Translations under genes and position numbers: made by a program
Notes under the pieces: model-generated
Seen by the model: only the letters and a program-made list of their open reading frames with translations
What the model was told of the DNA's origin: nothing
The model's database searches: none
IMG/VR virus record: IMGVR_UViG_2740892212_000011
Strand: one strand, 5' to 3'
DNA from: a virus
Taxonomy: Duplodnaviria; Heunggongvirae; Uroviricota; Caudoviricetes
DNA length: 8,797 bases
Shown: positions 6,317 to 6,933 of the stretch, one piece after another
Layout of the letters: each line of letters opens with the position of its first letter
How positions within the stretch are numbered: position 1 is the stretch's first letter

Positions 6317-6778
6317 TTGGCTCACCCACCCAAAGGAACGTCACGATGTTTGGTATTTTTGGTAAAAAAAGCCCGCAGAGCGGCAACGGAAATTAAAAAG
6401 TTTGAAAAACGCGATCTGGCACAGGCGGTGATTAACGCCGCATACCTGGTGGCCTGTGCAGATGGTGAATGTGAGGCTTCCGAGAAAGCGAAGATCGAAC
6501 AGGTACTGCGTAATCAGCCAGCGCTGTCCGCGTTTACGTCAGAAATTAATGCGATGAGCGCAACCATTATCGGTCAGCTGGATACGAACTTTAAAATTGG
6601 TCGTCGTGCGGCGTTACGTGAGATCGAGGATGTGAAACACGATACGCGTGAAGCGGAAGATGTGCTGGATGTGGCGGTGGCCATTGCGGAGGCAGACGGC
6701 GAAATTGAGCCGGAAGAGCGCAAGGTGCTGGAAGAGATTGCCGGTGTTCTGGGTCTTCGTCTGGAGAATCACCTGTGA
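6317..6778 (+). CDS. TerB-family protein (two ADG-containing helical repeats); 5' end ambiguous because the SD-preceded ATG at 6346 is in a different frame, separated by an A7 tract (6364-6370)
   Basis: Repeats ...AAYLVACADGECEASEKAKIEQVL... and ...VAVAIAEADGEIEPEERKVLEEIAG... are typical of TerB domains. The long frame has only a TTG start with no SD; ATG 6346 has SD AAGGA 8 nt upstream but stops after 16 codons. Confidence 0.6.
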   Translation: MAHPPKGTSRCLVFLVKKARRAATEIKKFEKRDLAQAVINAAYLVACADGECEASEKAKIEQVLRNQPALSAFTSEINAMSATIIGQLDTNFKIGRRAALREIEDVKHDTREAEDVLDVAVAIAEADGEIEPEERKVLEEIAGVLGLRLENHL

Positions 6779-6933
6779 CGGTAAAACTGCGCCTGGCTGT
6801 GGCTGCACTCCTGCTGTTTCTGGTGGTGATGGTGGATTTCACCAGCAGAATCATGTCGGTGCTGGCGGATGGGGGGCTGGTCTGCGGCATTGTGGTATTG
6901 CTGTGGCCGATGATGAAAAAACAGAATGAATAA
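6775..6933 (+). CDS. Small two-helix membrane peptide (52 aa), translationally coupled to the TerB-like gene
   Basis: GTG 6775 overlaps the TerB stop (GTGA) and is the first start codon in this frame; product VTVKLRLAVAALLLFLVVMVDFTSRIMSVLADGGLVCGIVVLLWPMMKKQNE has two hydrophobic segments. Could still be a chance ORF in GC-rich DNA. Confidence 0.4.
   Translation: MTVKLRLAVAALLLFLVVMVDFTSRIMSVLADGGLVCGIVVLLWPMMKKQNE

Follow-up and report, generated by a model that had tools for sequence, protein, structure and literature searches.

The tciA-tciB gene pair

We have analysed a stretch of 8,797 nucleotides (henceforth the window) of the Caudoviricetes record IMGVR_UViG_2740892212_000011 from IMG/VR, which its open reading frames (ORFs), ARAGORN, the PGAP annotation pipeline and Pfam identify as the late-regulatory and lysis region of a lambdoid prophage. 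In it, downstream of a block of tRNA genes, lie a TerB-family gene and, overlapping its stop codon, a gene for a 52-residue peptide. The initial annotation, made from the letters of the DNA, had taken these for an unfamiliar combination. Its sequence, however, identifies the locus as tciA-tciB, a phage accessory operon already named and annotated, the two genes belonging to PHROG families 632 and 1470 and the second to DUF3927. The pair and the signals within it are as follows.

6350–6933, plus strand: the tciA and tciB pair
6350–6778, plus strand: tciA, TerB-family protein of 142 residues, as called by PGAP from TTG 6350 on the identical sequence of Escherichia coli EC12
6775–6933, plus strand: tciB, DUF3927 peptide of 52 residues, its GTG start overlapping the tciA TGA
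6763–6767, plus strand: GGAGA, resembling a Shine-Dalgarno (SD) sequence, inside the 3' end of tciA and 7 nt upstream of the tciB GTG
6346–6396, plus strand: 16-codon out-of-frame ORF, MFGIFGKKSPQSGNGN*, opened here by the ancestral tciA start ATG 6346–6348
6364–6370, plus strand: A7 homopolymer, with one A inserted relative to the in-frame A6 allele, which shifts the tciA N-terminus

The names come from phage P1, in which tciA-tciB-tciC, annotated 'by homology', follow dmt and tRNA genes in the C1-controlled ban operon. Papers on P1 plasmids carry this annotation over and call the function unclear, and a CRISPR interference (CRISPRi) screen of P1 found tciA, tciB and tciC all to be non-essential. 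GenBank labels of the same kind are found in JLK-2012, 434 (TciB) and PPyecE ('TciA/TerB-like'), PHROG files both families under 'moron', and in EC12 PGAP calls the products 'tellurite resistance TerB family protein' and 'DUF3927 family protein'. EC12 is 100% identical to the window over 921 nt spanning the tciA-tciB region, and at least 80% of this stretch is carried by 708 of 5426 complete E. coli genomes (about 13%). Relatives of TciA also occur in 913 plasmid records (872 non-mobilizable), mostly phage-plasmid-like. DUF3927 itself is a small family, with 114 representatives among 1.84 billion, and is named in a single work of the searchable literature. What is new here are the counts of pairing in both directions, the constant overlap at the junction, the selection acting on the genes, the reshuffling of partners, the multiple Q and holin contexts, a variant partner in Pseudomonas phages and a helix model of TciB.

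The TerB assignment made from the letters was borne out by profile searches. TciA matched Pfam TerB (PF05099) at 55.8 bits against a cut-off of 24.4, over profile positions 2–109 of 118, and PHROG 632 with an E value of 2e-66; its family profile found the Klebsiella TerB structure 2JXU in the PDB (E 4.5e-17, positions 13–137). The AlphaFold (AF2) model is all-helical, with a predicted local distance difference test score (pLDDT) of 84.8. Because a Foldseek search of the PDB with this model gave 2H5N as its sole confident match (TM-score 0.52–0.59) and did not list 2JXU, fold membership rests mainly on sequence. Both acidic A-x-x-D-G-x5-E motifs are kept (A35/D38/G39...E45 and A113/D116/G117...E123), their residues being invariant or nearly so across 26 sequences; we take these to be putative metal-binding residues. 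By sequence TciA is a soluble, acidic protein (isoelectric point about 5) with no hydrophobic span (maximum KD19 value 1.08), and its N-terminus is first hydrophobic and then cationic, with eight Lys or Arg among the first 22 residues. Weak similarities to DjlA (NF006948, E 1e-6) and DUF533 (E 4.5e-5) fall far under the family cut-offs.

The 52-codon frame is likewise a real gene. TciB matched DUF3927 (PF13064) at 63.9 bits (cut-off 25; profile positions 2–49 of 53) and PHROG 1470 with an E value of 6.4e-28, and the ratio of nonsynonymous to synonymous substitution rates (dN/dS) of tciB is 0.13–0.42. The peptide has apolar stretches at residues 7–20 and 33–45 (13–14 residues each), separated by an amphipathic segment, with Lys or Arg at both tails, and is predicted from this pattern to be an inner-membrane peptide. 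The initial annotation had thus correctly seen a small membrane peptide. Its two transmembrane helices fared less well, AlphaFold giving a single helix over residues 3–51 (pLDDT 91.5, predicted template modelling score 0.51) and no hairpin; a two-helix transmembrane hairpin is at present a hypothesis. Residues D21, F22, S28 and D32 are invariant and all lie on one face of the modelled helix, D21, S28 and D32 falling together with R25 within an arc of about 60 degrees, and the hydrophobic moment peaks at 0.44–0.53 over residues 18–34. A Pfam search found no similarity of TciB to TerC or to holin or toxin families.

Pairing across phages

The association of the two genes is near-obligate in both directions, and the co-occurrence test proposed in the initial annotation thus came out positive. 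Downstream of TerB, a DUF3927 ORF starts within a few nucleotides of the stop codon in all 80 IMG/VR viral loci and in 21 of 23 genome loci (one per species, with room downstream), with TciA identities in this set reaching down to 38%. One of the two exceptions, Rosenbergiella, has a divergent DUF3927-like peptide at the junction (E 3e-5, TAATG overlap) and the other, Ca. Pantoea communis, a hydrophobic ORF of 49 residues. Conversely, 77 of 78 DUF3927 loci have TerB directly upstream. The overlap described in the initial annotation is exact in the window (GTGA 6775–6778, with GTG at 6775–6777 and TGA at 6776–6778), and the junction overlaps or abuts in every lineage examined, as GTGA, TGATG, TAATG or TAAATG. 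P1, Pollock, FSL SP-058 and over 100 further loci show this geometry. Purifying selection acts on both genes (dN/dS 0.04–0.42), the median pairwise identity being 0.54 for TciB and 0.42 for TciA.

The pair is not confined to temperate phages, since it is present in strictly virulent N4-like and jumbo phages; in the jumbo phage Asesino a divergent TciB begins 3 nt past TerB. In the N4-like phages the end of tciB is overlapped by a conserved ORF for a soluble protein of about 109 residues (Pollock, locus L008, 2036–2368; FSL SP-058, locus L116, 1790–2116), which may be a lineage-specific third component, as TciC is in P1. Ca. Pantoea communis (locus L096, 1340–4582) has four TerB-domain ORFs in about 3 kb, among which only the TciA-like one precedes a small hydrophobic ORF.

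Within the pair, the partners have not always travelled together. One locus (L084) has a TciA of the window type (89%), yet its TciB shares 96% identity with the TciB of another locus (L099), whose TciA is of the P1 type (43%). Such discordant histories imply that the partners are interchangeable between TciA clades, and that recombination has taken place at or near the tciA/tciB junction. DUF3927 members are essentially stand-alone peptides of 50–65 residues, longer matches being chimeric or frameshifted calls; five apparent TerB-DUF3927 fusions (P0128, P0186, P0246, P0284 and P0295) were rejected on the same grounds.

A different small partner is found in the Pseudomonas phages AF and Zuri, where TerB is coupled to an unrelated protein of 65–73 residues with one transmembrane segment at its N-terminus and the conserved motif C.(W/I)YG(Y/W)QTERET.YA.FVGCMV...PR.E.R (in short, YGxQTERETxYAxFVGCMV). 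It matches no Pfam family and is annotated at most as 'membrane protein'.

L118, 1614–1835: small protein of AF, with GTGA overlap; the ORF is unannotated in AF
L117, 1634–1837: small protein of Zuri, with a +4 gap after TerB

A frameshifted tciA allele

Relatives start tciA at a conserved ATG preceded by AGGA, giving an N-terminus of the form MFG(I/F)F.KK; JLK-2012, Evi, PPyecE and most IMG/VR loci have kept this ATG in frame. The initial annotation had begun the gene at TTG 6317, which is merely the mechanical start of the ORF, where relatives use the ATG at 6346 and PGAP the TTG at 6350; the frameshift behind this disagreement was overlooked there. In the window the ATG at 6346 is out of frame because the A-run has seven rather than six residues, so that the TerB frame can begin only at TTG 6350. 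The resulting N-terminus reads MVFLVKK instead of MFGIFGKK, while residues 8–142 are intact. Neither the in-frame ATG nor Gly3, the marks of an intact start, is retained; Gly3 is invariant in 14 diverse TciA sequences, and Lys7 was also counted as invariant.

Such damage is frequent. Among 74 E. coli-type IMG/VR loci, 16 (22%) have a disrupted tciA through three independent kinds of lesion, namely the A7 run (11 loci), a deletion of one G (three) and a premature stop (six, four of them on A7 backgrounds), and A7 is found in addition in EC12 and 2013C-3492. This recurrence in EC12, 2013C-3492 and 11 IMG/VR assemblies rules out a sequencing error. A programmed frameshift or phase-variable switch finds no support either, most alleles having A6 or the non-slippery AAAAAGAAAA and being in frame; A7 alleles also gather additional stops (4 of 11, against 2 of 60 in-frame alleles). 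Given that the extra A displaces both the conserved start codon and Gly3, which is invariant, the allele in the window probably yields little TciA or none. For annotation, this means that many E. coli copies of tciA are frameshifted at the A-run and are rescued by gene callers via the TTG start.

These features fit a degraded or hypomorphic allele in a decaying prophage, and they raise an explanation that concerns this copy whatever intact tciAB does elsewhere: that the module in the window is a non-functional remnant, with tciA a pseudogene. Besides the lost start and the excess of premature stops among A7 alleles, the adjacent sialate-esterase gene has been deleted to a pseudogene and the Rz-like lysis gene of EC12 is frameshifted (PGAP). 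Against this, most of tciA and the whole of tciB are intact, the TTG 4 nt downstream of the ATG holds the frame so that PGAP calls tciA intact, and tciB has an SD sequence of its own. On balance we lean slightly towards a remnant. In the window alone the finding is an ordinary one, a known pair of cargo genes in degraded form.

Position in the late operon

The genes and signals between Q and the end of the slot occupied by tciAB are listed below.

3437–4258: Q antiterminator (PF03589), with stop TAG 4256–4258
4264–4291, plus strand: pR'-like late promoter directly after Q (-35 TTGATT 4264–4269, 16-nt spacer, TG 4283–4284, -10 TAAATT 4286–4291)
4339–4366, plus strand: tR'-like intrinsic terminator from the terminator scan, AACCCGCCACCGAGCGGGTT followed by a T-run
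4486–4683, plus strand: ORF of 65 residues (198 nt; PHROG 331) between tR' and the methylase, with its own terminator at 4670–4687
4834–5892: N6/N4 DNA methylase (1059 nt)
5933–6176, plus strand: three tRNAs found by ARAGORN (CAT anticodon, Ile2-type; Arg-TCG; Arg-TCT), the upstream edge of the cargo slot
6192–6345, plus strand: conserved leader of tciAB, with a weak terminator-like hairpin and T6 (6192–6214) at its 5' end and the SD sequence AGGA (6333–6336) at its 3' end
6948–7128, plus strand: small RNA (sRNA) element of the STnc100 family (RF02076; 116.8 bits, gathering score 47), starting 15 nt past the tciB stop
7156–7174 and T8, to 7184, plus strand: strong intrinsic terminator from the terminator scan, following the STnc100 element

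The promoter, whose -10 TAAATT we take to be like that of lambda pR', scored 8/12 and was for that reason missed by a simple consensus scan; it was read from the sequence. The tR'-like terminator presumably ends a short pR' transcript and is the target of Q antitermination. No sigma-70 promoter of tciAB's own was found at 6177–6345 by the consensus scan, and a 9/12 promoter-like candidate lies at 5895–5923, just 5' of the tRNA block. The leader is kept in five loci with differing upstream contexts; a structured RNA or riboswitch in these roughly 150 nt was rejected (fold z = +0.44, no Rfam match).

Comparable arrangements recur elsewhere. The order Q, tciAB, holin is found in prophages of Pantoea, Pseudescherichia, Franconibacter and one further member of the Enterobacterales, which among them use three unrelated Q families (PF03589, PF06530 and PF06323) and three holin families. 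Taken together, the pR'-like promoter, the tR'-like terminator, the lack of a consensus promoter between the tRNAs and tciA, the SD sequence of tciB and this synteny point to late, Q-dependent and translationally coupled expression; probably, then, tciAB is part of the late transcript that depends on Q, and the initial annotation had likewise supposed expression from the late promoter. The pair stands outside the late operon at locus L110, where it adjoins an S24 cI-like repressor, and at locus L101 a BRCT-domain protein lies upstream of it. Linkage to tRNA genes is limited to P1, Asesino, the lambdoid slot of E. coli and a small number of other cases, and was therefore discarded as a trait of the module.

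The placing of the pair in the slot in which Stx phages carry stxAB, also part of the initial annotation, agrees with Stx2a_1447, whose flanking genes around stx2AB come in the same order. Since this is the late-operon slot of Shiga toxin, tciAB would be co-regulated with lysis. The 3' border of the slot is formed by the STnc100 element and its terminator (6948–7184). Some 130 Stx-phage records have this element, without annotation, downstream of stx2AB. A 2026 preprint on Pas sRNAs connects STnc100 with PasD, lists TerB as a conserved neighbour and describes a layout of PasD/STnc100, esterase, PasA/C and holin, which the slot matches (Zhu, Shabalina and Storz 2026). In JLK-2012, 434, PPyecE and many E. 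coli, STnc100 is separated from the holin by a sialate O-acetylesterase gene (nanS-p/SASA); in the window it is deleted (7128–7540), leaving a frameshifted pseudogene remnant at 7149–7443 on the minus strand (PGAP). A terminator-like hairpin at 7525–7543, just 5' of the holin, could mark a PasA/PasC-type sRNA, and there is a weak, sub-threshold Esr41-like match at 7356–7446 (minus strand).

Another explanation is that TciB is itself the effector, an oligomeric ion-conducting or membrane-perturbing peptide of the viroporin or holin/antiholin kind, with TciA as a metal-responsive cytoplasmic gate; the invariant Asp/Ser stripe would line the pore and the pair would tune the membrane potential and hence the time of holin triggering. 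The greater conservation of TciB, the clustering of D21, S28 and D32 with R25 where the hydrophobic moment is highest, the retention of the acidic, putatively metal-binding TerB motifs and the position directly upstream of holins from three families all agree with such a role. On the other hand, tciB stays intact where tciA is frameshifted or truncated and stands alone in 434, so that unregulated TciB is not obviously toxic, the knock-down in P1 had no lysis or plating phenotype, and the Pfam search linked the peptide to no holin or toxin family. We consider this explanation quite improbable.

Neighbouring genes and closest relatives

The remaining features of the window lie to the left of Q and in the lysis region.

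128–685, plus strand: paa (AcfC-family adhesin, virulence-associated), the left-edge ORF, so annotated in E. coli Z1322HEC0010
877–1026: sok RNA (RF01794, 104.6 bits) of a hok/sok-type toxin-antitoxin locus
within 967–1179: Hok-like ORF, MKQQKAMLIALIVICLTVIV..., the hok/sok-type locus covering 877–1179
2007–3053: DUF968 gene
3066–3440: RusA
within 7541–7801: P21-type holin, with the PGAP start at 7586
7806–8024: DUF1327
8049–8345, minus strand: ORF of 98 residues (PHROG 25324; no Pfam match), inserted into the lysis cassette against its orientation, with DUF1327 on one side and the lysozyme gene on the other
from 8473: lysozyme

The 65-residue ORF after tR' is labelled 'TrmB family transcriptional regulator' in phiP27. 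The first tRNA (5933–6008) was called Met(CAT) by ARAGORN, and tRNA-Ile (ileZ, Ile2-type) by PGAP and in Stx-phage records. Positions 66–7287 match E. coli Z1322HEC0010 at 93%, and EC12 covers positions 2100–8725 only, at 98.3%; the window as a whole was absent from the set of complete genomes searched.

Possible roles of tciAB

The reading that we favour for the intact module, to which we give about an even chance, is that tciA-tciB, of which the window holds a degraded allele, encodes a membrane-docked TerB module acting in lytic growth. TciA and TciB would be made from the Q-antiterminated late transcript in a roughly fixed proportion through translational coupling, TciB would insert into the inner membrane, and TciA would be recruited to its cytoplasmic face by TciB, by its own hydrophobic-then-cationic N-terminus, or by both. 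TciAB would in effect be a membrane-tethered TerB domain, like those of TerB-TerC, DjlA and DUF533 proteins, in split form. It would act during lytic growth by sensing or buffering stress in divalent cations or membrane energisation, so that the inner membrane of the infected cell is kept whole until programmed lysis.

Several lines of evidence suggest this. The need for a membrane partner is in keeping with the report of TerB as a partner of TerC (PMC11003894), with the description of TerB as membrane-associated, and with the small membrane protein next to TerB in AF and Zuri. A role in membrane stress would match the tolerance of Ter type to pore-forming colicins and incoming phages, and action in the lytic cycle is suggested by the occurrence of the pair in virulent phages and, in P1, in the C1-repressed ban operon.

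A number of observations weigh against it. TciB, with its four invariant residues, is conserved beyond the need of a mere anchor; the discordant TciA and TciB phylogenies argue against a tightly co-evolved interface; and no true TerB-DUF3927 fusion protein was found among the matches checked. Phages 434 and 2B8 carry TciB without TerB, and in PMBT3 and Vibrio D505 the TerB gene is not followed by an ORF for a small membrane protein. Binding of TciA to TciB is presumed, and dependence on the late promoter is inferred from position only. The lack of a plating defect on CRISPRi knock-down in P1 implies that any benefit of tciAB is conditional, and a literature search found no experiment on TciA or TciB. 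In 434 (locus L003, 2138–3370) and 2B8 the N-terminal third of TciB is replaced, and the gene lies between those of a 247-residue protein with several transmembrane segments and a 62-residue membrane protein, neither with a Pfam family.

A benefit to the host cell offers another way to account for an inner-membrane TerB pair. From the inner membrane TciAB would keep other phages and pore-forming colicins from passing in DNA or forming pores, through leaky expression in the lysogen or in the infected cell itself, a sense implied by the P1 name 'tci'. Ter clusters give phage inhibition and colicin resistance (Whelan 1995, in the passage of PMC11003894 that cites it), and TerB, described as membrane-associated, is present in the defence systems Shango and Bunzi, for which 'membrane surveillance' has been suggested. 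The pair at L110 adjoins a cI-like S24 repressor, as the TerB gene of phage AF adjoins a repressor-like gene, and the PHROG category of both genes is 'moron'. Yet the genes belong to repressed lytic operons in P1 and the lambdoid prophages, and they are carried by strictly virulent phages. PADLOC had no matching model, its best hit for TciA being PDC-S48 (15 bits, E 0.0025) and TciB having none, and no Shango or Bunzi partner genes lie nearby, the neighbours being Q, the methylase, tRNAs and lysis genes. Membership of tciAB in a defence system was rejected on the PADLOC result, and superinfection exclusion or host defence seems to us rather unlikely. The abortive-infection idea put forward in the initial annotation fits poorly for similar reasons, namely the N4-like and jumbo phages, the dispensability of the genes in P1 and the want of a meaningful PADLOC match; virulent-phage occurrence and the PADLOC result are also why membrane homeostasis in lytic growth is preferred over it.

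A bolder extension of membrane-docked TerB action is that TerB with a small, translationally coupled inner-membrane partner forms a two-component module general to phages, in the manner of a minimal TerB-TerC. We regard this as speculative and unlikely. The partner may come from two or more unrelated families, among them DUF3927 in phages of enterobacteria and the one-transmembrane YGxQTERETxYAxFVGCMV protein in Pseudomonas phages; phages may turn the module on as late or lytic transcription begins, for cation sensing or control of membrane energisation; and the D21/S28/D32 stripe of TciB may be a functional ion site. If true, such a module could set the timing of lysis or neutralise abortive-infection defences that act on the membrane.

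Whichever role applies, the pair is very common and sits in the slot of Shiga toxin, and its function would explain the stand-alone TerB of phages, about whose role phage genome papers have asked repeatedly. Knowing it would also help with how TerB domains work in the Ter, Shango and Bunzi systems.

Comparison with known systems

Shango and Bunzi share with tciAB the TerB domain and a proposed link to the membrane. Their TerB is paired with an ATPase/helicase or with larger transmembrane proteins, whereas tciAB is phage-borne and occurs also in virulent phages.

The Stx slot is alike in its setting. Stx2a_1447 has the 198-nt ORF, the 1059-nt methylase and ileZ/argN/argO before stx2A/stx2B, and after them an STnc100-like stretch, the sialate esterase and the lysis genes. 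The cargo of the window differs, being a pair of TerB protein and membrane peptide rather than an AB5 toxin, with no sign of a virulence role.

The TerB of the terZABCDE(F) cluster (Klebsiella, 2JXU) has the same domain over nearly its full length and both ADGxxxxxE motifs, and it is reported to work with the integral membrane partner TerC. Unlike that cluster, neither the window nor EC12 contains any other ter genes (terC, terD, terE and so on), and the membrane partner in the window is a 52-residue peptide without detectable similarity to TerC. The authors of the PMBT3 study considered a tellurite phenotype unlikely for lone phage TerB genes.

To DjlA and the DUF533/YebE-type proteins TciA shows only the weak, sub-threshold profile similarity noted above. 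In these proteins a TerB-like domain is held at the inner membrane; in the window, by contrast, the membrane element is a separate polypeptide and there is no J-domain.

Another close relative is the tci operon of P1. It differs from the pair in the window in having TciC, a 35-residue protein with a single transmembrane segment for which no such ORF follows tciB here, in being under the C1-controlled ban promoter rather than in a Q-dependent late region, and in that tciA of the window is frameshifted at its start. The two also have much in common: TciA is 41% identical, a DUF3927 TciB comes at once after it with a stop/start overlap (TGATG in P1), tRNA genes and a DNA methyltransferase lie close by, and the genes are non-essential accessory genes.

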